Assembly (NCBI GenBank): GCA_001029635.1
Contig: CP011209.1
Location: forward strand, 551,774 to 615,773
Direction of reading: 5' to 3'
From: Candidatus Wolfebacteria bacterium GW2011_GWB1_47_1
Lineage (GTDB): Bacteria; Patescibacteriota; Minisyncoccia; UBA6257; UBA9933
DNA length: 64,000 nucleotides
Shown here: one piece after another, positions 2,875-60,338 of the stretch
Layout of the letters: the number at the start of each line of letters is the position of its first letter
How positions within the stretch are numbered: position 1 is the stretch's first letter
The notes under the pieces: model-generated
The model's input: the letters and a program-made list of their open reading frames with translations, nothing else
What the model was told of the DNA's origin: nothing
Database searches by the model: none
Translations under genes and position numbers: made by a program

Positions 2875-3942
2875 CTAGGTGTGGAGTACTTTCCATACTG
2901 CTTCGAACTCCTTCAGATAGGTTCGCGTTTCCGGCAGGACATGGGCTTCCCATGCGCCTGCGTGCTTGCGAATCGATCGGAGCGCTTTTGATGGGCCACC
3001 GTTGTATGCGGCGGCGAGATATTTGCCCATCGCCTCGGGATGCTTCTTGAGGAACTTCCGATGCGACTTGGGTAGATAGCTCAGGTCCGAGTCGAACAGC
3101 AGGAGAGTTGCCTTGGCGGCATTGATGTGGTTGTCCATACCGTCGCCGAAATTATCGATGAGCTCCGCTTGAGAATATCGGCGGTCTATTGCTGCGTACG
3201 TCCTGGGCATGAACTGGAACTGGCCACGCGCCCCCGCTTTCGAGATCGAATAGCGGTATGCGTTTTCGCGGTTCGTGGCCAGAATGACTAGTACCTCTCC
3301 GACAAGTTGTTCTACCGGGGTGCCGGCGTTGAAACGTGCGGGATCGATGTGTTCGATGATCGCGAGTGTCAGTGCTACGTCCTTGGGGATCGCGGAAGTG
3401 ACCTTCCCGCCGTAGGCGAGCGATCTGATCTTTTTGGCATCCAGATCGTGTTCCGCCTTTTCGAGCTTGTCTTTAAGGTAGATAAGACCTTCTTTCTGCA
3501 ACTTCGGCGAGTCGATACCCTTGGTGTATGGTGTATACGTTACCGCTTTGGTCTTGTTGTCTTGACGGACGACGCGCTTGAGTGCGAGCACCACATATCC
3601 CGAAGGGGACGTGATCTCGTAGTGCGTGTTGACCCCATTGAGCCTTGGGTATGTTACGTGGTAGCCCATAGGCGCTTGGGTGCCATTGGTGAGTGTGATG
3701 ATCTTGATCGCATCGTTATCTTTGCGAATCGCCAACAGAACGTCCTTTCCCGTGACACTTCTCGTCGAGAGAATTTCTCTTGCATCCATTGATCGGTTTT
3801 TCAGATATTGCTTGGCAAAGATGCCGAGAATACCCAAGAGAACGATCGTTGCAAGTACAGATACAGCCCTTCTGTTTCGCATTACATTACCTCCAAAAAA
3901 TTCGTAAAATGATGAACTGGTTATATAATGAACTAAAATCAT
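2875..3942 (-). CDS. membrane-anchored lytic transglycosylase (SLT domain)
   Basis: 355 aa; N-terminal TM; C-terminal GQFQFMPRTY...AAAYNGGP motif set characteristic of SLT/goose-lysozyme-like lytic transglycosylases. Confidence 0.6.
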   Translation of the reverse strand: MILVHYITSSSFYEFFGGNVMRNRRAVSVLATIVLLGILGIFAKQYLKNRSMDAREILSTRSVTGKDVLLAIRKDNDAIKIITLTNGTQAPMGYHVTYPRLNGVNTHYEITSPSGYVVLALKRVVRQDNKTKAVTYTPYTKGIDSPKLQKEGLIYLKDKLEKAEHDLDAKKIRSLAYGGKVTSAIPKDVALTLAIIEHIDPARFNAGTPVEQLVGEVLVILATNRENAYRYSISKAGARGQFQFMPRTYAAIDRRYSQAELIDNFGDGMDNHINAAKATLLLFDSDLSYLPKSHRKFLKKHPEAMGKYLAAAYNGGPSKALRSIRKHAGAWEAHVLPETRTYLKEFEAVWKVLHT

Positions 3943-5829: not shown

Positions 5830-6532
5830 GGGAGTGGATAATCCTTCTTTTATGTGTTTTGGTGTCTTCGACCAGTTGCCCGTCTTTTATGAACAGAATG
5901 CGCTCTGCGTGTTCTGCGAGTTCCCGTTCGTGCGTAATGAGGATAATTGTATGCCCGTGCTCCCTGTTCATTTTTTGGAATGTATCAATGACAATTTCTC
6001 CTGTTTTTGAATCAAGATTTCCCGTTGGTTCATCCGCCAAAATGAGCGACGGCTTATTGACCAATGCCCGGGCAATCGCAACGCGTTGAATCTGCCCACC
6101 TGAGAGCTGGTTCGACAAATGATTGTAGTGCTCTTCGGTGAGCCCTGCTGATTTCAGTGCCGCGCGCGCGCGTTTTTCACGTTCTTCGCGGTCGACGCCC
6201 GCGTACATGAGTGGAAGCATGACATTGCGCAGTACGGTCGCACGGGGGAGTAGGTTGAATGATTGAAATACGAATCCGATGCGATCCATGCGGATGTCTG
6301 CTAGTTCGTCGTCGGATAGCATGGATACATCCTTACCGTCTAAAATGTACTGGCCAGTTGTCGGAGTATCGAGTGCCCCTAGGATATGCATTAGGGTTGA
6401 TTTGCCCGACCCCGACGGACCCATGATTGCCACGAATTCCCCGTCCTGTATTTCAAAGCTTACGCCCTTCAACGCCTGAAAGGGGACTGCTCCCGATGTA
6501 TATGTTTTTGTGACGTTTTCGATCTTGATCAT
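5816..6532 (-). CDS. ABC transporter ATP-binding protein (MacB/LolD-type)
   Basis: Walker [10 protein letters not shown], signature [15 protein letters not shown], Walker [13 protein letters not shown]. Confidence 0.95.
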
Positions 6533-47193: not shown

Positions 47194-49038
47194 ATGGGAA
47201 TCTTTAAACTCACATCTGAATATAAGCCGTCAGGGGACCAACCGGAAGCGATCAAGCAATTGATCGCCGGTTTGGATCGGGGTGATCGGTATCAGACCCT
47301 TTTGGGGGTTACCGGTTCAGGGAAGACCTTCACGGTCGCTAATCTGATTCAACATTACAACAAGCCGGTTCTTGTGATTGCGCCAAATAAGGCCCTCGCT
47401 GCCCAGCTCTATCGTGAGTACAAGAATTTTTTCCCCAATCATTCGGTTAATTATTTTGTTTCGTACTATGATTACTATCAGCCCGAGGCATATATGCCAG
47501 GTACCGATACCTATATCGAGAAGGAGGCAATGATCAATCAGGAAATCGATCGATTGCGTCATCAGGCTACTTCGGCACTGTTGACCCGCAAAGATGTTAT
47601 CGTGGTAGCATCTATCTCATGTATTTACGGACTCGGCGTTCCCTTGAATTATTTTGCGTCTGCCATTCATTTATCTGTTGGGCAGTCTATTACTCGCAGC
47701 GATCTGATCGGGCAGTTGATCAAGATTCAATTTACCCGTACGCCAGGAGTGCTGAAACGCGGAGAATTCCGTGTGCGTGGAGATGTATTTGAGATCTTGC
47801 CCGCATCTGAGACGATGTCCTATTCTATCGAATTGGGGGCGGACCAGACCATTAAGGATATTGCAATCATCGACCCAATGACGCGGACCATGATCGATCA
47901 TCCACAGGATATCGCGCTTTTTCCTCCGAAACACTTTATTTCCAGTGCGCCTGAGATTGCCCGCGCTGTACAGGATATTCGCGTCGAGTTAGAGGATCGA
48001 TTGGAATATTTCAACAAGAATAAGCTGTATCTCGAGGCTGAGCGGCTTGAGCGCCGCGTGCGTTACGATATGGAAATGCTTAAGAGTCTTGGTTTTTGTC
48101 ATGGTGTTGAGAACTATTCGCGCCACCTGAGTGGCAAGCTTGCGGGAGAAGCACCCGATACCTTGCTTGATTATTTTCCGAAGAAGGATGGCAAGCCTGA
48201 TTATTTACTTGTCATGGATGAATCGCATATTGGCGTACCGCAAGCGCGGGGCATGTATGCGGGAGATCGAAGTCGTAAAGACACATTGGTAAAGTATGGA
48301 TGGCGTTTGCCGTCCGCCATGGATAATCGACCACTCAAATTTGATGAATTTGAAAAACGTATCGGGCAGACGGTTTTTGTATCTGCCACGCCGGGTGATT
48401 GGGAATTAGAGCATTCAAAAATCGTCGCCGAGCAGGTCATCCGCCCGACCGGATTGATCGATCCACCGATTGAAGTACGGCCTGTGTTCGACAAGGAAAA
48501 GAATCGTAGTCAGATCACCGATGTCATCGAGGAGCTGTATGGCGTTGTAAATAGAGGCGAACGCGGCCTTGTGATTACGCTCACTAAAAAGCAAGCGGAA
48601 GATCTTAATGATCATTTAACAAATGAAGGGTTTAAATCACGCTATATCCACTCCGAGGTTAAGACATTGGAGCGAACCGAGATATTGATGGATTTTCGAA
48701 GAGGAGAATTTGATGTATTGATCGGCGTGAATCTGTTGCGTGAAGGATTAGATCTTCCCGAGGTTACCTTAGTCGCCATCCTTGATGCAGATCGTGAAGG
48801 ATTTCTGCGTAGTGAAACATCACTTATCCAGACAATGGGACGCGCCGCGCGCAATGTGAGCGGTACGGTTATTCTGTATGCAGACAAGGTTACCGGCTCG
48901 ATGCAACGAGCTATGGACATTGTCAATAAACGAAGGAAATTGCAGGAGGCATACAACAAGAAGCATGGCATTACGCCAAAAACGATCATCAAGACGATTG
49001 AGCGTATGCTGGATTTTAGCGGCTCTGTGGATGGTTGA
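47194..49038 (+). CDS. uvrB: excinuclease ABC subunit B
   Basis: GVTGSGKTF Walker A, helicase motifs, beta-hairpin region; 614 aa. Confidence 0.95.
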   Translation: MGIFKLTSEYKPSGDQPEAIKQLIAGLDRGDRYQTLLGVTGSGKTFTVANLIQHYNKPVLVIAPNKALAAQLYREYKNFFPNHSVNYFVSYYDYYQPEAYMPGTDTYIEKEAMINQEIDRLRHQATSALLTRKDVIVVASISCIYGLGVPLNYFASAIHLSVGQSITRSDLIGQLIKIQFTRTPGVLKRGEFRVRGDVFEILPASETMSYSIELGADQTIKDIAIIDPMTRTMIDHPQDIALFPPKHFISSAPEIARAVQDIRVELEDRLEYFNKNKLYLEAERLERRVRYDMEMLKSLGFCHGVENYSRHLSGKLAGEAPDTLLDYFPKKDGKPDYLLVMDESHIGVPQARGMYAGDRSRKDTLVKYGWRLPSAMDNRPLKFDEFEKRIGQTVFVSATPGDWELEHSKIVAEQVIRPTGLIDPPIEVRPVFDKEKNRSQITDVIEELYGVVNRGERGLVITLTKKQAEDLNDHLTNEGFKSRYIHSEVKTLERTEILMDFRRGEFDVLIGVNLLREGLDLPEVTLVAILDADREGFLRSETSLIQTMGRAARNVSGTVILYADKVTGSMQRAMDIVNKRRKLQEAYNKKHGITPKTIIKTIERMLDFSGSVDG

Positions 49039-49079
49039 CAAACCGTATCTCTAGTGTCATAACTAATCACTTACCTACC

Positions 49080-51584
49080 ATGGAAGATAAAATCAGTATA
49101 AAAGGAGCTCGGGTGCATAACCTGAAAAATATCGATCTGGAAATACCCAAGAATAAACTTGTGGTATTTACCGGTGTTTCGGGAAGCGGCAAATCGTCGC
49201 TTGCTTTTGACACCATCTTTGCCGAAGGGCAACGCCGATATATTGAGTCATTGTCTCCGTATGCGCGACAATTTTTAGGACAGATGGAGCGCGCCGATGT
49301 TGACGAGATCGTCGGTCTTTCTCCGGCCATTGCCATCGATCAGCGAGCACTTTCGCATAATCCGCGATCTACCGTAGGAACGTTGACCGAGATCTATGAC
49401 TATTTGCGCATTTTATTTGCGCGTTTAGGGGATGTGCATTGTCCGCATGACGATACCAAAATTGAAAAATTGTCCGTCGATGAAATGATCGATATCATTG
49501 TTGGTCGCGCCAAGAAGGCGAAGCAGAGCGTGGTCACAGTTATGTCTCCTGTGGTGCGTGGACGCAAAGGGGAGTACTATCAGCAGCTGTATGATTATCT
49601 CGGGCTTGGTTATGCACAGGTGCGCGTTGACGGCGTCATGCACTCGTTGCATGATAAGATTGAACTTTCCCGCTATAAGGAACATTCTATCGATCTGGTC
49701 ATCGACAAGATTCTTATAACCGATATATCCCGTTTGCATGAAGCGGTCGAGGGCGCGCTCGATCAGAGTAAGGGATTAGTGACGGTGTTGATGGGCGAGC
49801 AGTCCGATACTCCCGATGAGTTTATGCTTTCTTCAAAATGGACCTGCCCAGTCGATAATTTTGTCTTTCCGGATATTGAGCCTCGATTATTTTCGTTCAA
49901 TAGCCCGCATGGTATGTGCGAAACCTGCTCGGGTCTAGGGAAGACTGATCTTTTTTTGAAGACCGTTTGCCCTGACTGTAAAGGTAAACGGTTGCGGCCG
50001 GAGGCACTATCTATTCGCATCAATGGAAAGAACATCTACGAAGTTGCTTCGATGACTAACGCGGATTCACATGCGTTTTTTGCGGAGTATGAAAAAAAGA
50101 TGACCGAGCGCGAGATCACCATCGCGGCAAACGTGGTTAAGGAGGTAAAGGATCGGCTGCAATTCTTGCTCGAAGTGGGACTTGATTATTTGACTATGAC
50201 TCGTGAAGCGGAAACACTTTCCGGTGGTGAGGCTCAGCGTATCAGGCTTTCTTCCCAGATCGGTTCCCAACTTTCCAATACATTGTATGTCCTTGATGAG
50301 CCTACAATCGGTTTACATGAACGTGATACCGATCGATTAGTGGGTATTTTAAAAAAGCTCAAGGCGCAAAACAATACCGTGATCATCGTGGAGCACGATG
50401 AACTAACTATTCTGGAGTCGGACTATCTTGTCGACTTCGGGCCGTTTGCTGGAAAGCACGGCGGGGAGATCGTTGCACAAGGAGAGACGGCAACACTACT
50501 TAAAAATCCGGGGGACATGAATTCGATGACCGTACAGTATCTGCGTGAGGAGCGGAAGATTGCAGTACCACAGCGCCGGGACAAGACGACCGAGAAGCTT
50601 TCTATTATTGGCGCAACTGCGCATAACCTCAAGAACGTGAACGTGGATATTCCGCTTCGTAAATTTGTTTGCGTGACCGGTGTTTCGGGAAGCGGGAAGT
50701 CAACGCTTATTCAGGATGCGTTGTATGAAAATCTTAATCTGTTGAAGGCGCGTATGGATGAGCCGCTTACCGGCGTTGCCGACATCACCGGCTCTGATTA
50801 TATTGATCGGGTTGTTGCCGTTGACCAAGCGCCAATCGGACGCACGCCCCGTTCGAATCCTGCGACGTATACCGGCATCCTGACTCCAATTCGTGAATTC
50901 TATGCGCAGCTGCCCGAAGCGCGCGAACGGGCATATACGGCTTCACGTTTTTCATTCAATGTTGCCGGAGGGCGATGTGAATCATGCCAGGGTGCCGGGC
51001 ATAATCTTATCGAGATGCACTTTTTGCCGCCTGTCTTGGTTGAGTGCGAGGTTTGTCATGGCAAGCGATACAATCGGGAAACGTTGCAGGTGAAGCACAA
51101 TAAAAAGAACATCAGCGATGTGCTTGCCATGACGATCGACGAAGGTGTGGAATTTTTTGACGGCATTTGGCAGATTACCGATAAGTTGAAGATTCTTCAG
51201 TCTGTTGGACTTGGGTATCTGCAACTTGGTCAGAGCGCGACAACTCTTTCGGGAGGGGAAGCGCAGCGCATTAAGCTGGCTCGTGAGTTGACCCATCCGC
51301 TCGGCAAGCGCGTACTGTATCTTTTGGATGAACCAACCGTCGGATTGCATTATTACGATGTTGAATTATTATTGACCGTCTTGAATAAGTTGGTTGATAA
51401 GGGGCATTCTGTCGTAGTCATCGAGCATAATATGCACCTCATCAAGTCGGCAGATTATGTCATAGATCTCGGCCCCGAGGGTGGTGCGCGTGGTGGAGCT
51501 ATCGTTGCAAAGGGAACCCCGGAGGAGGTTGCGGACAATACACATAGTATTACGGGGAGTTATCTCAAACATTTTCTGAAATAA
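49080..51584 (+). CDS. uvrA: excinuclease ABC subunit A (compact, ~835 aa)
   Basis: two ABC modules ([14 protein letters not shown]; [11 protein letters not shown]), zinc-finger cysteines, LSGGEAQRI signatures. Confidence 0.95.
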
Positions 51585-51588
51585 GGCC

Positions 51589-52815
51589 GTGATATGCTAT
51601 CATAACCCTATGATCGCATCACTCAAGAAACGGTATCTCGAAAGCAATGTGACGCAAGGATTTGTCGCGCTTTATACCGGCAAGACCATTTCGAACATCG
51701 CCATTAGTTTATTCGGCATGTTTCTGCCGATATTCCTCTATAAGCTCTATGGAGGGGATTTTAATTTTGTCGCACTTTATTTTTTAGTAGGATATTTATT
51801 GTACGGATTTTCCATTCCGTTCGGCGCATTCTTTTTGAACCATCACGGATTTAATCGGTCATTGCGTTTGAGTACGTTCTTCGGTGCCAGCACCTTTGTG
51901 CTGCTCTATTTTGTCACTCCCGCAAATGCCTGGTATTTGATACCCGTCCAAATCCTGGCGACGACAATCTATCGTTTGTTGTTCTGGCTTCCGTATCATG
52001 TTGATTTTGCGGAATTTTCAGATGCGAACAAACGTGGCTCCGAGATTGGCGTATTCGAGGCAACGCTCAATATTATTGGCGTTGTGACTCCGTTACTTGC
52101 GGGATTTATTATTACGCAATATGGCTTTGGCGTCCTGTTTATTATTGCGACAATGATCTTCTTGTTGTCGCTGATCCCATATCATTTTATCCCTGAGATA
52201 AGGGAGAAATTCACTTGGACGTACCGGCAAACCGTGCGCCAGCTTTTCGCCAAAAAGCATCGGGGAATTACGCTGGCATTTATGGCTGACGGAGCTGAAG
52301 AAGTTGTTGGGTTTATTGTGTGGCCGATTGTTATCTACGAGCTGCTTAAGGGGAATATTTTGCAGATCGGTATTATCTCGACCATCGTGGTTGGCAGCAC
52401 AATCGTACTGCAATTGTTTGTTGGGCGACATTCAAACGAACGAGCGACGCAGGAGCGCATCTTGCGGTATGGTAGTTTCTTTGCATCGCTTGCCTGGTTG
52501 TTGAAAATCTTTGTCATTACGGCACTTCAGATATTCGTCGTCGATGCCTATCATAAGTTGACTAAGATCATGATGCGCATACCATTTGCGGCGATGACAT
52601 ATGAGCTGGTTGCTGATCGTGGACATTATATTGATGAACATACGGTATTATATGAAATGGCCATCAATATGGGGCGTGTTGCCATGATTAGCATTATTCT
52701 CGTAATGACGTTATTCATGCCTCTGCAATGGACGTTCATTTTTGGAGCGATCGCTTCCATTCTGCTCAATTTTCTTCGGGTGCGTCATTCCAAATTTACC
52801 CCGCATCGACGCTAA
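51589..52815 (+). CDS. MFS-type transporter (12 TM predicted)
   Basis: 408 aa hydrophobic protein with two six-helix halves; start may be 51608. Confidence 0.6.
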   Translation: MICYHNPMIASLKKRYLESNVTQGFVALYTGKTISNIAISLFGMFLPIFLYKLYGGDFNFVALYFLVGYLLYGFSIPFGAFFLNHHGFNRSLRLSTFFGASTFVLLYFVTPANAWYLIPVQILATTIYRLLFWLPYHVDFAEFSDANKRGSEIGVFEATLNIIGVVTPLLAGFIITQYGFGVLFIIATMIFLLSLIPYHFIPEIREKFTWTYRQTVRQLFAKKHRGITLAFMADGAEEVVGFIVWPIVIYELLKGNILQIGIISTIVVGSTIVLQLFVGRHSNERATQERILRYGSFFASLAWLLKIFVITALQIFVVDAYHKLTKIMMRIPFAAMTYELVADRGHYIDEHTVLYEMAINMGRVAMISIILVMTLFMPLQWTFIFGAIASILLNFLRVRHSKFTPHRR

Positions 52816-52840
52816 ACGTAATATACTATCCACATTCACG

Positions 52841-52867
52841 CATGTACGTCTTGCGATGACGTACATG
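52841..52867. repeat. perfect 10-bp inverted repeat (REP-like variant) at the island boundary
   Basis: CATGTACGTC-TTGCGAT-GACGTACATG. Confidence 0.5.
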
Positions 52868-52963
52868 TAAAAAAAGCCGGGCATAATGCCCGGCTTTACG
52901 ATCATTTAAGGATGTCTTGCGTCGGCGCATAGCGACATCGCTGTCCAAAACGCGACATTTATT

Positions 52964-52988
52964 TTTCCGTCATCGAATGACGGAAAAT
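52964..52988. repeat. REP-like palindrome, 5' flank of the RAYT gene
   Basis: TTTTCCGTCATCGAATGACGGAAAA. Confidence 0.75.
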
Positions 52989-53007
52989 CCATGCTATACT
53001 GTAATAT

Positions 53008-53694
53008 ATGGCTGATTTATATCATGTATTAAATAGGGGGGTTGATAAGAAGAAAATTTTTATAGATGATCAGGACCATTTTCGATTCGTCCATGATCTC
53101 TACGAATTTAATGACGTCGAATCCGCTGATTACATAAGAAATAGCAGGAAGCTTTTTATTAAAGCTAATTTTCCGTCATTCGATGACGGAAAATTAGAAG
53201 AGAGGCAGTCATTAGTGCATGTTCATGCATTTTGTTTAATGCCCAATCACTACCATTTACTACTTAGTCCTGTGGTTGAGGGAGGGATTCCAAAGTTTAT
53301 GAAGAAGTTGAACATGGGGTACTCGCGGTATTTCAATGAGCGGTATGAGCGGAAGGGGACATTGTTTGAAGGAAGATATAAATCAGTTCCAGTGGCGGCG
53401 CAAGCACACTTTATTCATCTGCCATACTATATTCACTTGAATCCATTAGACATGTTCGACTATGGATGGCGGGATCACGCAGTACATAACCATGCCGATG
53501 CAATGCACTATCTTGAGCAGTATCGTTGGTCGAGTCATCTGGATTATCTTGGCAAGAAAAATTTCCCTTCGGTCACACAGCGGGATTTCCTGCTTGAGTT
53601 TTTTGGAGGGCATGAGGGGTATGCGCGGGCACTTGATCGATGGGTGAGGGATATTAGTGTCGGGGATATCCAAGATGTTTTGTTGGAAATATAA
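53008..53694 (+). mobile_element. IS200-like HUH (Y1) tyrosine transposase of the REP-associated (RAYT) type, 228 aa
   Basis: YHVLNRG N-terminus, HUH motif LMPNHYHLLL, catalytic Tyr in EGRYKSV; flanked by inverted REP palindromes. Confidence 0.75.
53168..53192. repeat. REP-like palindrome copy inside the RAYT ORF (in-frame, encodes NFPSFDDGK)
   Basis: TTTTCCGTCATTCGATGACGGAAAA, same orientation as the 3' flank copy. Confidence 0.7.
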
Positions 53695-53720
53695 TATTCC
53701 GTCATTCGATGACGGAATAT
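53694..53720. repeat. REP-like palindrome, 3' flank of RAYT, inverted relative to the 5' copy
   Basis: ATATTCCGTCATTCGATGACGGAATAT immediately after the stop codon. Confidence 0.75.
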
Positions 53721-53734
53721 TGGTATTGGGAATA

Positions 53735-53762
53735 AAAAAGCCGGGCTTGGAGCTCGGCTTTG
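53735..53762 (-). terminator. terminator hairpin (variant of the island terminator)
   Basis: AAAAAGCCGGGCTTGGAGCTCGGCTTT. Confidence 0.6.
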
Positions 53763-53766
53763 TGTT

Positions 53767-54156
53767 TTAGTGCGTGTCGGTTGGTAGTTCGTTTTTGTGT
53801 GGAGTGGGAATATCCTTGTAAATGCCGATCGCCATCACTGCCCATATGAGTGCATTGAGCAGGTGCGCGTATTCGAACAAGAGAGGGATCCCGATCGCCG
53901 CATATACGAGTGATACACAGCAGGCCGCTGTTATCATGAGTGCGAAATCCAGCTTGTATTCGTTTTTGGCAAATCCTTTCCAGACAAAGGCCATGAGCGT
54001 CAGCCAATACGCAATGCTCAGCCATCCGACAATTAATAGCGTGCGTGTCTCGCTATTTACTACTTCGAGCATGATCCCTAATTCTGCGAATGTCATCGCT
54101 ATACTGATGAAGAGTGCAGCAATGCTGATCTTACCCGTTGTTCCTTTGCCTGCCAT
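53767..54156 (-). CDS. small 4-TM membrane protein (129 aa), paralog of 54285..54644
   Basis: AAGGAGG SD; own TTGACA-17-TATAAA promoter and terminator. Confidence 0.55.
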   Translation of the reverse strand: MAGKGTTGKISIAALFISIAMTFAELGIMLEVVNSETRTLLIVGWLSIAYWLTLMAFVWKGFAKNEYKLDFALMITAACCVSLVYAAIGIPLLFEYAHLLNALIWAVMAIGIYKDIPTPHKNELPTDTH

Positions 54157-54197
54157 ATGGGCCTCCTTGCATTGCGCGCTATATAGTTACTTTTATT

Positions 54198-54226
54198 TTT
54201 ATATTGTTTTTTTATAAAAATGTCAA
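54198..54226 (-). promoter_or_regulatory. sigma70 promoter TTGACA-N17-TATAAA
   Basis: minus strand TTGACATTTTTATAAAAAAACAATATAAA. Confidence 0.65.
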
Positions 54227-54232
54227 TTTATG

Positions 54233-54263
54233 CGTAAAAAAGCCGGGCATAATGCCCGGCTTT
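54233..54263 (-). terminator. island terminator copy (GCCGGGCATAATGCCCGGC)
   Basis: hairpin then T-run on minus strand. Confidence 0.75.
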
Positions 54264-54284
54264 GCGATGGGTGGATGATCCTCT

Positions 54285-54644
54285 TCATATCGCGAGGATC
54301 TTCCTGTAGACAACGTGGAGTATCGCGTACCACAGGAAGCCATTTGCCATGTTGCCGATCTCCCAGAGAATCGGGATGTGTACGAGCGCGCAGAGAATCG
54401 GCATTGCACCAATCAGCGTGACGATAACCACCGGCGCGATATTCGCGATATTCTCGGCAAGTGCGAACCATCCGTAGATGAGAAAGATCATCCAGAGGAC
54501 TGCGCTGGACCACAGTGAATATTGTGCAGGCACATCTTTCAACGTGAGTACCCCCGAGATAAGGCCCATACTAAATAGTACTTGTATAACGCCCATCATC
54601 AGTACGCCCGTGCAAAACATCGCTTGCTTCATTTCCCACTTCAT
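54285..54644 (-). CDS. small 4-TM membrane protein (119 aa)
   Basis: GGAGGACA SD; own TTGACA-17-TATAAA promoter at 54687..54715. Confidence 0.55.
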   Translation of the reverse strand: MKWEMKQAMFCTGVLMMGVIQVLFSMGLISGVLTLKDVPAQYSLWSSAVLWMIFLIYGWFALAENIANIAPVVIVTLIGAMPILCALVHIPILWEIGNMANGFLWYAILHVVYRKILAI

Positions 54645-54686
54645 CTGTGTCCTCCGTTATGCGATATAGTAGAATAGCTGATTTTT

Positions 54687-54715
54687 TTTATATCACATAC
54701 CATTTCTTGTGTCAA
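54687..54715 (-). promoter_or_regulatory. sigma70 promoter TTGACA-N17-TATAAA
   Basis: minus strand TTGACACAAGAAATGGTATGTGATATAAA. Confidence 0.6.
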
Positions 54716-54726
54716 CTTTATTTCTT

Positions 54727-54755
54727 AAAAAAAGCCGGGCATAATTGCCCGGCTT
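54727..54755 (-). terminator. island terminator copy (GCCGGGCATAATTGCCCGGC)
   Basis: hairpin then T-run on minus strand. Confidence 0.75.
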
Positions 54756-54781
54756 GGATAGCTTGCGAGTGTAGGAGTGAA

Positions 54782-55099
54782 TTACCGCGACGTTTCGAAG
54801 ATGGAGAGGAACTCCTCGGTATGTTCGATGAGACCCTCTAGGTTTTCGCGTATGATGCGGGATCCTCCTTGAATCCCGTCCAGGTCATGCGGCTGGAAGC
54901 TGGTCTGCTTGCTGAGATAGGAGATGACGCTTGCCGCCATGTCGGTGACGCAGGCATGGTGACCATCGTCAGGGCTTTCCCACACCCGGTTGCTCGCGCT
55001 GAGCCCCTTCAGTTTCTGTAGGAGCGCCGCAGTGAATGCGTAGTTGAATCCCGTGATGGTTTCTTCCGGACTAATGCATAGTTGCATTTTTTGTTTCAT
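54782..55099 (-). CDS. hypothetical cytoplasmic protein (105 aa)
   Basis: CAGGAGGCAAAA SD; own promoter at 55137..55165. Confidence 0.5.
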   Translation of the reverse strand: MKQKMQLCISPEETITGFNYAFTAALLQKLKGLSASNRVWESPDDGHHACVTDMAASVISYLSKQTSFQPHDLDGIQGGSRIIRENLEGLIEHTEEFLSIFETSR

Positions 55100-55136
55100 T
55101 TTTGCCTCCTGAGTAAGTTGTATTTGATCTAAATGT

Positions 55137-55165
55137 ATAATATACTATTTTCATAAAAATGTCAA
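55137..55165 (-). promoter_or_regulatory. sigma70 promoter TTGACA-N17-TATTAT; its -35 overlaps the uvrC start codon
   Basis: minus strand TTGACATTTTTATGAAAATAGTATATTAT; on the + strand TGTATAAT (extended -10) lies 18 nt before the uvrC ATG. Confidence 0.6.
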
Positions 55166-56325
55166 TTTTATCCGATCACGTAAAATCGTTCCCCGATAGT
55201 TCTGGGGTATACCGATTCCTTGATGCACAAGGGGGGATTTTATATATCGGCAGGGCTACATCGCTGCGGAAACGGGTGAGTAATTATTTTACCAATCGGA
55301 TCGATGCGCGCATCGCAGAGATGGTGTCGCTTGCCGCTGATATCCGCTATGAACAGACCGATACGGTACTTGAGGCGATCATTCTTGAGGCTAATCTCAT
55401 CAAGAAGTATTGGCCTAAATATAACGTCAAAGACAAGGACAATCGTTCGTTTTTGTACATCGTTATTCCAAAAACGGATTATCCGAAGCCGCTTGTCGTG
55501 CGCCATCGCGAATTGGAAAAGTTTTCCGCGATCAAGGCAGATATCTTTGGTCCGTATCAGAGCATAACATTGATCAAAAATGCTCTGAAGATTATCCGTC
55601 GCATCTTCCCGTATAGTACGTGCGTGCCTAATGTTGGCAAGCCTTGCTTCGACCATCAAATCGGATTGTGCCCGGGTATTTGTGTTGGCGCCATTACAAA
55701 GAAGGATTATCAGAAGAACATCAAGAGCGTTATACTGCTCTTGAGCGGGAAGAAAGAATTACTCCTCAAACGACTTGCCAAGGAGTACCCAGAAAAGGCT
55801 GTAAGTCTGCGACATATTCAAGATGTTTCATTAATCACGCGGGATGAGCTGGTACAGGAAGTGCCTGGAGCGCATCGTATTGAAGGATATGACATCTCCC
55901 ATCTTACAGGCAAAGAAACCTACGGATCTATGGTTGTGTTTACCGATGGAGAAGCGGATAAAGAGCAGTATCGCTTGTTTGCCGTCAGGGATGCGGCGGC
56001 GAGCGATGACCTGCATGCATTGGAGGAAGTGGTAACCCGACGATTTCGTCATGATGAATGGGATCTGCCCGATCTAATCATGATTGACGGGGGGCGACCT
56101 CAGGTGGACCATATCGCGGGCGTTTTCCGCACATATAATATTACAGTGCCTATGGTGGGTATTTCGAAATACAGTGGAGATGCTCTGGTGTTTCCGCTTG
56201 GCACCAAGCAGTCTGTACGGGCCCTTGCGGAGACCTTGAAGCCAGTCCTATTGCGTGTTCGGGACGAAGCGCATCGATTTGCGCTGCGCTCGAGTCGACG
56301 CAAACGGGACAGCCGTATGCGATGA
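55159..56325 (+). CDS. uvrC: excinuclease ABC subunit C, compact form (GIY-YIG + Cys motif + RNase H-like endonuclease domain; no C-terminal HhH)
   Basis: GVYRFLDAQGGILYIGRA (GIY-YIG), CFDHQIGLCPGIC, IEGYDISHLTG...IDGGRPQV...DEAHRFA. Confidence 0.8.
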   Translation: MSILSDHVKSFPDSSGVYRFLDAQGGILYIGRATSLRKRVSNYFTNRIDARIAEMVSLAADIRYEQTDTVLEAIILEANLIKKYWPKYNVKDKDNRSFLYIVIPKTDYPKPLVVRHRELEKFSAIKADIFGPYQSITLIKNALKIIRRIFPYSTCVPNVGKPCFDHQIGLCPGICVGAITKKDYQKNIKSVILLLSGKKELLLKRLAKEYPEKAVSLRHIQDVSLITRDELVQEVPGAHRIEGYDISHLTGKETYGSMVVFTDGEADKEQYRLFAVRDAAASDDLHALEEVVTRRFRHDEWDLPDLIMIDGGRPQVDHIAGVFRTYNITVPMVGISKYSGDALVFPLGTKQSVRALAETLKPVLLRVRDEAHRFALRSSRRKRDSRMR

Positions 56326-56356
56326 GCACAGGGTTGTTTTGTGATATACTATAACC

Positions 56357-59049: not shown

Positions 59050-59696
59050 CAAAGAAAGATTATTTGCTTGGCGTTGTGGCAGGATTACTTATCGGATTGC
59101 TCGCTATGCCTGCCCTGTCTGCCGGGCTGACCGTATCGCTGTATAATTCCATTCGTATATTCATTATCCCTTTCTTTTTACTGGGTACTCCGTTGGGATT
59201 ATACGTGGCAGCTTTGCTTGGTAAGAAGATCCCTGCCGTATGGCAGATCGGCAAGTTTGGTGTTATTGGTATATTAAACACACTTGTCGATCTTGGTGTC
59301 CTTGCGGCAATCGCTTCCTTTGTCAATTCGCGCTATGGGGTTGAGTCGGATTATATCATTGGAATGATCGGCACGTGGACGGTTACGATCTATACTATGT
59401 ATAAGGCAATCTCCTTTGTGGTTGCGAATATCAATAGCTATCTATGGAACAAGTATTGGACGTTTGCCGTCGGTGTCGCACAGAAGACAAAGGCTGAATA
59501 TCTTCAGTTCTTCATTATTAGTATCGTTGGGTTCGTTATCAATGTTGCCGTATCTTCCGTTGCATTTGTATTTGCCTTGGGCTTAGAAGGTTTGACTTCT
59601 GGGCAAGCGGGATCGATTGGCGCATTAACAGGAACAGTACTAGGCCTCCTATGGAATTTCGTGGGATATAAATTTATCGTATTTAAAAATAAATAA
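59046..59696 (+). CDS. GtrA-like membrane protein with N-terminal extension
   Basis: KFGVIGILNTLVDLGVL ... NSYLWNKYWTF pattern of the GtrA family; 4-nt overlap with the upstream gene. Confidence 0.55.
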   Translation: MTKKDYLLGVVAGLLIGLLAMPALSAGLTVSLYNSIRIFIIPFFLLGTPLGLYVAALLGKKIPAVWQIGKFGVIGILNTLVDLGVLAAIASFVNSRYGVESDYIIGMIGTWTVTIYTMYKAISFVVANINSYLWNKYWTFAVGVAQKTKAEYLQFFIISIVGFVINVAVSSVAFVFALGLEGLTSGQAGSIGALTGTVLGLLWNFVGYKFIVFKNK

Positions 59697-59699
59697 CGA

Positions 59700-59735
59700 A
59701 AAAAATTCATGCGTTGCATGAATTTTTTTATTTTT
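59700..59735 (+). terminator. rho-independent terminator
   Basis: AAAAAAATTCATGCGTTGCATGAATTTTTTT. Confidence 0.75.
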
Positions 59736-60010
59736 TTAAAAAAAATAATTAAAAATAAAATATAAAAATAATTTTTTGAAAAATTTGAGTTATCCACATT
59801 GTAAAAATATTTTTTTTATTACAAAATTAAAGTATAAGAAAAATAAATAAACAAAAGTAAAAAATATTTTTATCTTTTATTTATTTTTTTTATTGCTTGG
59901 TCATCGATTTAAAATATATTTGATTGGTCGACAAATTTATTTTGAATATAAAAACAAATAATATTTTTCATTTATGCATCTCGATGCATTCATGAAATTA
60001 CAACATCACT
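59736..60010. promoter_or_regulatory. ~275-bp extremely AT-rich tract with one perfect DnaA box (TTATCCACA at ~59789) upstream of the KA-repeat micro-protein gene
   Basis: base composition far below window average, A/T homopolymer runs, consensus DnaA box. Confidence 0.5.
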
Positions 60011-60166
60011 ATGGCAGTAAAGAAAGCCGCCAAAAAGGCAGTGAAGAAGGCCGTTAAGAAGGTAGCCAAAAAGGCAGTGAAGAAGGCCGTTAAGAAGGTA
60101 GTGAAGAAGGCCGTTAAGAAGGTAGCTAAAAAGAAAGTTGCCAAGAAAGTTGCAAAGAAGAAATAA
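60011..60166 (+). CDS. 51-aa Lys/Ala-repeat basic protein (histone H1-like / HC-like nucleoid-type protein); absent from the ORF track (<60 aa)
   Basis: translation MAVKKAAKKAVKKAVKKVAKKAVKKAVKKVVKKAVKKVAKKKVAKKVAKKK; 27-nt tandem DNA repeats; strong terminator immediately downstream. Confidence 0.6.
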   Translation: MAVKKAAKKAVKKAVKKVAKKAVKKAVKKVVKKAVKKVAKKKVAKKVAKKK

Positions 60167-60171
60167 ATCTT

Positions 60172-60210
60172 TTTAAAGATCGCCCTGGAGTCTTTCCAGG
60201 GCGGTTTTTT
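60172..60210 (+). terminator. rho-independent terminator
   Basis: CGCCCTGGAGTCTTTCCAGGGCG + GTTTTTTT. Confidence 0.8.
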
Positions 60211-60338
60211 TATGGTAGTATTCTGATATATAGGAAAGGGGAATTAACCATCAAAACCTTCGTATTTTGGGAGTCATGTGGCGATGCTAGTCGGCATGCG
60301 CATGTACTTCGTCCTAATTCGATCGTTTTGTCAATTGC

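Follow-up and report, generated by a model that had tools for sequence, protein, structure and literature searches.

A lineage-specific variable slot between uvrA and uvrC in a Candidatus Wolfebacteria genome, probably built in three steps around a resident small gene

The DNA analysed here, hereafter the window, is a 64,000-nucleotide (nt) stretch of the Candidatus Wolfebacteria bacterium GW2011_GWB1_47_1 genome (contig CP011209.1, positions 551,774 to 615,773), and its subject is the region between uvrA and uvrC, which holds an MFS transporter gene, a transposase gene and three small genes. An earlier note, made from the sequence alone, had described the transposase and the small genes as one integrated accessory module of cloned promoter-gene-terminator cassettes. 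We consider it probable that the region is a lineage-specific variable slot within the uvrB-uvrA-uvrC cluster, which was built in three steps. As the region consists of three layers, the description as a single integrated module is right only in part. The first step would be a resident gene for a small acidic cytoplasmic protein, divergent from uvrC and ended by a hairpin with a U-tract. At the second step, which would be limited to a sub-clade, the MFS gene may have been inserted between uvrA and the small gene, with both genes converging on one terminator. At the third step, in this species only, about 1.84 kb would have been added at this terminator, comprising a Y1 transposase gene and two paralogous ORFan genes for proteins with four transmembrane helices (4-TM). 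The new genes would reuse the resident signals, as a copy of the terminator ends each of them and a copy of the promoter would drive the 129-amino-acid (aa) gene. Because their signals copy the resident ones, the apparent cloning may be explained by local duplication or recombination at the hairpin. The predicted products are one soluble uvrC-linked protein and two small membrane proteins with both termini inside. The genes are as follows, in window positions.

47194-49038, uvrB
49035-51584, uvrA
51589-52815, plus strand, MFS transporter gene (Pfam MFS_1, 6e-14)
53008-53694, plus strand, Y1 (HUH) transposase gene, IS200/RAYT-like, 228 aa (Pfam Y1_Tnp, above cut-off)
53767-54156, minus strand, 129-aa ORFan, 4-TM membrane protein, predicted N-in/C-in
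54285-54644, minus strand, 119-aa ORFan, 4-TM membrane protein
54782-55099, minus strand, 105-aa acidic soluble protein of a Wolfebacteria-only family beside uvrC
55159-56325, plus strand, uvrC, short 388-aa form (GIY-YIG and RNase H-like domains), start ATGTCAA (TIGR00194, 1e-91)

The order of genes and hairpins (uvrB, uvrA, MFS, hairpin A, T1, transposase with hairpins resembling repetitive extragenic palindromes (REPs), T2, 129, T3, 119, T4, 105, uvrC) is identical on 24 contigs from independent assemblies. The open reading frames (ORFs) confirmed that three minus-strand small genes of 129, 119 and 105 aa lie between MFS and uvrC, and the sequence bears out that each has its own promoter, a strong Shine-Dalgarno (SD) site and a member of one family of hairpin terminators. 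The observation was essentially correct, apart from the third promoter.

The uvrA-uvrC junction was compared by scanning species-representative genomes with UvrC, which gave 80 patescibacterial loci (designated L with a number below). uvrA and uvrC are neighbours in 70 of the 80 loci, where the gap is 131 nt or less in 30 and 311-3289 nt in 40. The wider gaps hold varied genes, including Germane/Gmad2 proteins, DUF3800 with Fic, and others. This synteny check confirmed the claim that the region splits a normally contiguous uvrA-uvrC pair. The gap survey suggests that uvrB-uvrA-uvrC is an ancestral cluster and that its junction is a recurrent variable slot. The junction can be regarded as a recurrent site of gene turnover in Patescibacteria, occupied in 40 of 70 species by diverse content. 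In another patescibacterial group (L034, L038, L043, L046, L071, L076 and L085), an EamA transporter gene lies in the slot, and most of these loci also have a protein of about 100 aa with an O6-methylguanine-DNA-methyltransferase DNA-binding domain, that is, a small repair-related gene immediately upstream of uvrC. Y1_Tnp (IS200-like) genes were observed in the slot of L025 (7400-7915, plus strand) and L026 (7349-7915, minus strand); they are unrelated to the window transposase and have only the HUH and tyrosine motifs in common with it.

The MFS gene lies next to the small gene in L001, L013, L121 and L126 and is absent in L078, L118, L125 and most Patescibacteria. The earlier note had taken it as part of the uvrA side of the island, which is not consistent with this distribution; the MFS gene itself appears to be inserted material of a Wolfebacteria sub-clade. 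The sister strain has only uvrA, MFS, a hairpin, a 102-aa gene and uvrC, contiguously and in six independent assemblies (L001-6). No transposase and no 4-TM genes were found between MFS and uvrC in L001-6, L126, L121 or L013, whose contiguous assemblies pass from MFS through a hairpin and a small gene to uvrC, and this absence from four related lineages supports the earlier claim that they are an addition. According to the collinearity with the sister strain, the extra DNA of about 1.84 kb occupies roughly 52870-54709, between T1 and the -35 element of the 119-aa gene promoter. Between the sister strain and the window, the first 113 nt of uvrC are 100% identical and the last 261 nt of uvrA are 90.8% identical (97.7% in aa), whereas the MFS protein is 66.7% and the small protein 61% identical in aa. 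The MFS proteins of species with a UvrC of 80-86% identity are at least as close to the window MFS as that of the sister strain. As the identity of the flanks far exceeds that of the interior, the interior of the slot seems to evolve or recombine much faster than the flanks. All eight sister contigs (L001-L008) stop on one side within or just past the initial 113 nt of uvrC and on the other within the terminal 261 nt of uvrA; these breaks lie where the identity to the window strain turns very high, which is typical of assembly-graph collapse at a strain-variable region.

The 105-aa gene represents the oldest layer in this reading. A profile search recovered seven protein clusters of its family with 24-61% identity, all on Wolfebacteria-like contigs. 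The family gene always lies between uvrA (L078, L118-120, L125) or MFS (L001-6, L121, L126) and uvrC, and it is divergent from uvrC in every locus recovered. Its promoter, P105, is kept in seven lineages, and the -35 element overlaps codons 1-2 and the first base of codon 3 of uvrC; TTGACAT and the uvrC start ATGTCAA are reverse complements of each other. TTGACAT was found over the uvrC ATG in 13 of 13 family loci versus 2 of 79 other patescibacterial uvrC starts. The ratio of nonsynonymous to synonymous substitution rates (dN/dS) of the 105-aa gene is 0.18 against the sister allele. The 105-aa gene is apparently an old, position-fixed resident outside the mobile module. Its inclusion in the accessory module by the earlier note is contradicted by its membership in a position-fixed Wolfebacteria family and by the interlocking of its promoter with the uvrC start.

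Just upstream of uvrC, a TATAAT on the plus strand shares positions with the -10 element of P105 (55142-55137), and owing to this overlap the 105 and uvrC promoters likely compete. On the same grounds, our best guess for the 105-aa protein is a role that modulates or accompanies either nucleotide-excision repair or the expression of uvrC. The protein belongs to an uncharacterised Wolfebacteria family that is strictly linked to uvrC and has its promoter within the uvrC start, which makes it a candidate regulator or accessory of excision repair. A confident AlphaFold2 (AF2) model of the protein has a mean predicted local distance difference test score (pLDDT) of 79, with three helices and a small sheet; it had no fold match in PDB or BFVD, and a PDB sequence search with the protein also had no match. 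In L013 the promoter and position are retained, and the occupant is a 120-aa ORF without detectable relation to the 105 family. This ORF was considered as a divergent family member and rejected (hhalign probability 1.4%). UvrC itself is the short form of about 380-390 aa without the C-terminal HhH region, and its length is equal in all 80 patescibacterial loci.

The terminator hairpins connect the resident gene with the added ones. They form a family with the pattern AAGCCGGGC-N3-8-GCCCGGCTT, termed here the T family, which has four members in the window.

52873-52897, minus strand, T1, T-family hairpin with U7 on the minus strand
53737-53761, minus strand, T2, diverged copy (76%) that ends the 129-aa gene (-12.4 kcal/mol, then U6)
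54239-54263, minus strand, T3, terminator of the 119-aa gene (-19.6 kcal/mol, then U6)
54732-54755, minus strand, T4, copy with a 1-nt insertion, terminator of the 105-aa gene (-19 kcal/mol, then U7)

The earlier note had counted three copies of the same hairpin and one variant; more precisely, two of the three are exact, the third contains a 1-nt insertion, and the variant is at 76%. The 19-mer GCCGGGCATAATGCCCGGC is present unchanged at two places, 52876 and 54242, against a chance expectation of 0. On the minus strand, the folding energy is -19 to -20 kcal/mol for T1, T3 and T4 and -12.4 kcal/mol for T2, with U6-7 directly after each. A GC-rich stem-loop followed by a U-tract lies 6-26 nt past the stops of the 129, 119 and 105 genes, as expected of intrinsic terminators. 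The T hairpins are oriented as predicted terminators of the small genes, and T1 also faces the MFS gene; it probably acts bidirectionally and serves the MFS gene too. T1 and T3 are 97% identical over 33 nt in direct orientation, and these direct repeats flank 1,366 bp comprising the transposase gene, T2, the 129-aa gene and its promoter. No further T-family copies were found elsewhere in the 64-kb window, and the stems of its approximately ten other terminator-like hairpins are all unrelated to the T family.

Hairpins homologous to T4 follow the 105-family gene in L121, L126 and L001. The hairpin in L121 is CAGCCGGGCTCACGCCCGGCTG (CAGCCGGGC-TCAC-GCCCGGCTG), while the terminators of L126 and L001 read GCCGG...CCGGC and then T6. 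Since the terminator of the family gene is homologous across lineages, T4 is the likely ancestral copy and T1-T3 are local copies. These findings do not agree with the idea that the cloned signals were imported; the terminators and one promoter are copies of those of the resident gene. An Rfam scan of the region gave only sub-threshold small RNA models matching the terminator stem. A metagenome-wide scan for the T hairpin gave 25 unrelated single matches, in a collection that does not contain this genome. In L013, which belongs to the related species GWE2_44_13, approximately 770 nt of GC-rich, structured-looking non-coding DNA (2967-3732) separate uvrB and uvrA. A hairpin within this DNA, AAAAAGCCGGGAAAATCCCGGCTTT, is of the same general family as T, and Rfam gave no matches to the DNA at the gathering threshold.

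All three small genes have TTGACA, a 17-nt spacer and TATAAA or TATTAT, which are features of sigma-70-type promoters.

54198-54226, minus strand, P129 (TTGACA 54226-54221, 17 nt, TATAAA 54203-54198)
54687-54715, minus strand, P119 (TTGACA 54715-54710, 17 nt, TGA-TATAAA 54692-54687)
55137-55165, minus strand, P105 (TTGACA 55165-55160, 17 nt, TATTAT 55142-55137; 11/12 matches)

P129 and P105 are identical at 25 of 29 nt, while the maximum among 100 dinucleotide shuffles was 23. P119 has only the hexamers and the spacing in common with them. The near-identity of promoters claimed for each gene thus holds for the 129 and 105 genes but not for the 119 gene. P129 appears to be a copy of the promoter of the resident 105-aa gene, including a CAT that in the resident promoter is complementary to the ATG of uvrC. 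The -35 region of P119 has a counterpart beside the terminator in the sister strain. The SD sites AAGGAGG, GGAGGA and AGGAGG lie 5 nt before the ATG of the respective small gene. A crude survey showed that strong SD sites are rare in the window, with about 6 in about 60 genes, three of them here. The three genes can be read from their sequence as insulated monocistronic units with signals unusually strong for this genome. Most genes of the window have no SD; in many, a -10-like element stands only a few bases ahead of the ATG. Several carry an extended -10 (TGnTAnnnT) at just 6-7 nt from the start codon, for example at 52989-53007, 51570-51610 and 56335-56356, and this short distance suggests leaderless mRNAs.

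The 129- and 119-aa proteins were proposed to be paralogues. Their alignment is gapless with 17-22% identity, and its Smith-Waterman score of 95 exceeds all shuffles (maxima 63-73, z = 7.7-9.3), which supports the proposal. For both genes the annotated frame has the highest codon-usage score of the six. Both proteins show four hydrophobic helices at regular spacing and a charge bias of the positive-inside type; on inspection of the sequences, the K/R residues lie at both termini and in loop 2. An AF2 model of the 129-aa protein has four helices at a pLDDT of 61, and its Foldseek matches are meaningless. In a word-indexed search of 5.8 billion clusters, the sole match of the 119-aa protein was itself; in an exhaustive HMMER search of 1.84 billion representative proteins, the 129-aa protein matched only its own copies, and neither collection contained any other homologue of the two. 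Viral contigs contained no relatives of the 4-TM proteins. The three small proteins had nothing significant in Pfam, NCBIfam, PHROGs or PADLOC. The best PHROG match (E 0.0097) was to a family of unknown function and the neighbours are uvrC, MFS and a transposase, which does not indicate a holin; PADLOC gave nothing below E 0.018, and no defence or immunity family was matched. The holin or immunity role suggested by the earlier note therefore found no support in families, viral contigs or folds. The pair probably represents lineage-specific envelope proteins.

Several other candidates concerning the pair were rejected. The derivation of the 4-TM genes from MFS or other window genes was rejected for lack of similarity, and a dual-topology heterodimer was rejected because the charge bias is alike in both proteins. 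A "120-aa variant" of the 119-aa gene in L012 is due to a run of N in the scaffold. A pilin-129 fusion (P0004; L127, JGI Ga0103682_10005220, 6001-6372) has 123 aa and joins a type IV pilin-like N-terminus to the final 67 residues of the 129-aa protein. An assembly chimera is the probable explanation, since the contig and the window have 100% identity on one side of a short common word.

The transposase matches Y1_Tnp at 7.6e-10 (39.4 bits versus a cut-off of 23), and its translation contains the motifs NHYHLL (HUH) and YYIHLNP (tyrosine). The NCBIfam model for REP-associated tyrosine transposases (RAYTs), NF047646 REP_Tyr_transpos, gave 33.7 bits, which is under its cut-off of 80, and a PDB sequence search with the transposase had no match. 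The hairpins around it are given below.

52840-52870, strand not assigned, hairpin A, just past the MFS stop, core CGTCTTGCGATGACG (-16.9 kcal/mol)
52962-52988, strand not assigned, left REP-like hairpin, TTCCGTCAT-CGA-ATGACGGAA, in the opposite orientation to the other two copies
53167-53196, strand not assigned, third REP-like hairpin, in frame within the transposase ORF (-19.4 kcal/mol)
53693-53721, strand not assigned, right REP-like hairpin, directly past the transposase stop

The REP-like hairpins have the pattern TTCCGTCAT-N3-ATGACGGAA, and the end copies are inverted and 96% complementary. Positions 53145-53196 are a 51-nt copy of the 3' end of the transposase gene and its hairpin, which corresponds to approximately residues 47-63 and leaves the ORF intact; the energy of -19.4 kcal/mol would apply to this hairpin within the mRNA. 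The three copies all lie at the transposase gene, with none elsewhere in the 64 kb or in related loci, and no second copy of the transposase unit was found in the window. Relatives lack the unit, but they lack the 4-TM genes along with it. The transposase ATG is preceded at 7 nt by an extended -10, TGCTATACT, which suggests that its mRNA may be leaderless. RAYT genes are flanked by hairpins in inverted orientation (PMC3116915, PMC3337134). The naming of this gene as a RAYT is favoured by its Y1/HUH motifs and inverted flanking hairpins, but its score lies below the curated RAYT cut-off. It is filed here as RAYT/IS200-like and as no more than a candidate RAYT. The core of hairpin A is two mismatches from the REP-like core, and its 12-mer also occurs at the homologous place in L013 (7480-7510), which has no transposase there. 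The stems of hairpin A and the REP-like hairpins contain CGTC/GACG, reminiscent of "CGTC-tagged" REPs, which are said to have no dedicated transposase (PMC3733652).

Some observations weigh against the three-step history. The direction of gain was deduced by parsimony from four lineages. The sister strain keeps a ATAAAATTGACA remnant beside its terminator, which a deleted cassette may have left as a scar. Identity is only 17-22% between the paralogues yet 97% between the terminators, for which one simple duplication is insufficient; since the genes have diverged while the hairpins are near-identical, one has to suppose gene conversion or a subsequent spread of the hairpin. In addition, the copy counts of the hairpin families cover 64 kb of a 633-kb genome. 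The remnant is also an argument for a multi-cassette array that was ancestral to the window and sister group and was lost in relatives by deletion between hairpins, which the direct hairpin repeats would favour: in the sister strain, a T-run and ATAAAATTGACA stand directly past the terminator, collinear with T4 and the P119 -35. However, in L126, L121 and L013 the MFS stop is approximately 10-60 nt from the terminator without a TTGACA remnant, four independent losses are less parsimonious than one gain, and homologues of the 4-TM proteins were found nowhere in the searched collections. Such an ancestral array is quite unlikely.

It is unlikely, although somewhat less so, that the transposase and the small genes came as one horizontally acquired module with its own promoter-gene-terminator cassettes, for example of immunity or holin-like function. 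The absence of the insert from four related lineages, the adjoining Y1 transposase, the direct repeats T1/T3 around 1,366 bp, and the occurrence of Y1_Tnp genes in the same slot of L025 and L026 are consistent with acquisition. The composition points in two directions. GC is 0.45-0.50 across the region. The tetranucleotide distance of the windows at the MFS 3' end and transposase lies at the 89th-95th percentile, and the GC content at third codon positions (GC3) of the transposase gene is 0.43 versus 0.52 +/- 0.04, which agrees with an acquired module, but the small-gene windows lie at the 41st percentile. The compositional deviation that the earlier note proposed to check was thus not found for the small genes, which have ordinary GC and tetranucleotides. 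GC3 is raised in the 119 (0.67) and 105 (0.69) genes; this is no sign of foreign origin, since the old resident 105 gene has it too. Acquisition of the whole module is further opposed by the ancient residence of the 105-aa gene and its promoter, by the homology of the terminators with the resident one in relatives without the insert, by the lack of a visible donor (4-TM homologues were not found in protein collections or viral contigs) and by the lack of holin, immunity or defence family matches.

The 129 and 119 ORFs could also be chance ORFs in a repeat-rich spacer, with hairpins and promoters serving otherwise, for example in insulating MFS from uvrC. Neither has homologues, the AF2 model is of low confidence (pLDDT 61), and the codon score of about 0.09-0.10 is at the low end for the genome (0.054 for an antisense 131-aa ORF). 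In contrast, each ORF fits exactly between a promoter and an SD (5-nt spacing) ahead of its ATG and a terminator after its stop; both have four regular hydrophobic helices with positive-inside bias, a gapless paralogue alignment (z = 7.7-9.3) and the annotated frame as the best of six. Chance ORFs are therefore very improbable. We give equally little credence to the idea that the terminator hairpin and the adjacent UP/-35 module form a portable "expression shell", which would at once equip captured or newborn ORFs with promoter, SD and terminator. Such ORFs would be captured or born through recombination at the hairpin, in which the neighbouring HUH transposase might assist by acting on hairpins in single-stranded form. 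The retention of promoter and position around an unrelated ORF in L013 is in keeping with it. If true, it would represent a minimal cassette-building system in a reduced genome of the candidate phyla radiation (CPR).

Under the three-step history, the region is a further case of a familiar kind of locus, a small variable islet that carries ORFans beside an IS200/RAYT-like gene, and it leaves current understanding unchanged. Two features are modestly curious, namely that expression signals would have been cloned locally and that a promoter lies embedded in the start codon of uvrC. ORFan genes that would be made expressible by copying the promoter or terminator of a neighbour provide a small-scale example of the possible wiring of lineage-specific genes into expression in tiny CPR genomes. 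Like other strain-variable islets, the slot has conserved flanks (uvrA, uvrC), variable lineage-specific content and a transposase, as well as mosaic divergence, with flanks 91-100% and the interior about 68% identical. Unlike them, it is only 3.5 kb long without a tRNA or integrase, and among its occupants the 105-aa family is itself conserved, with a promoter that interlocks with the start of uvrC.

The transposase unit can be compared with two known systems. In REP/RAYT units ("REPtrons"), a single-copy Y1 HUH transposase is accompanied by inverted REP hairpins (PMC3116915, PMC3337134, PMC5581495, PMC3733652). The window unit resembles them in its Y1_Tnp domain with HUH and YxxxNP motifs, its single copy in 64 kb and its near-identical inverted hairpins. 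It differs in that it scores below the NCBIfam RAYT cut-off, no dispersed REP copies were found in the 64 kb or any related locus, the stem has CGTC/GACG without a GTAG tag, and the third hairpin lies inside the ORF. With IS200-type elements (IS200/IS605, tnpA only) it shares a unit of approximately 760 bp (52962-53721) with a Y1 transposase alone and structured ends. It differs from these as no second copy was seen in the window and both end hairpins are the same sequence inverted, rather than distinct. At 228 aa, the transposase is also longer than classical TnpA.

The small genes invite two further comparisons. The likeness to an integron array is formal only: short single-gene units in the same orientation, with a hairpin repeat, stand beside a DNA-strand-transfer enzyme. 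In contrast to an integron, each unit has its own promoter, perfect 25-nt terminators with a U-tract take the place of attC, the enzyme is an HUH transposase instead of a tyrosine recombinase, there are two or three units only, and no integrase was found in the region. The 4-TM pair resembles SMR/EmrE, CrcB/Fluc, holin and bacteriocin-immunity proteins in having about 120 aa, four TM helices and an adjacent paralogue, but it has no Pfam, NCBIfam, PHROG or PADLOC match and no neighbouring lysin or toxin gene. Unlike dual-topology SMR/CrcB pairs, the two paralogues share their predicted topology and show no opposite K/R bias. Outside the region, positions 59400-60300, between the GtrA-like and ribosome-hibernation-factor genes, are very AT-rich (GC down to 0.21) and form the strongest tetranucleotide outlier of the window.

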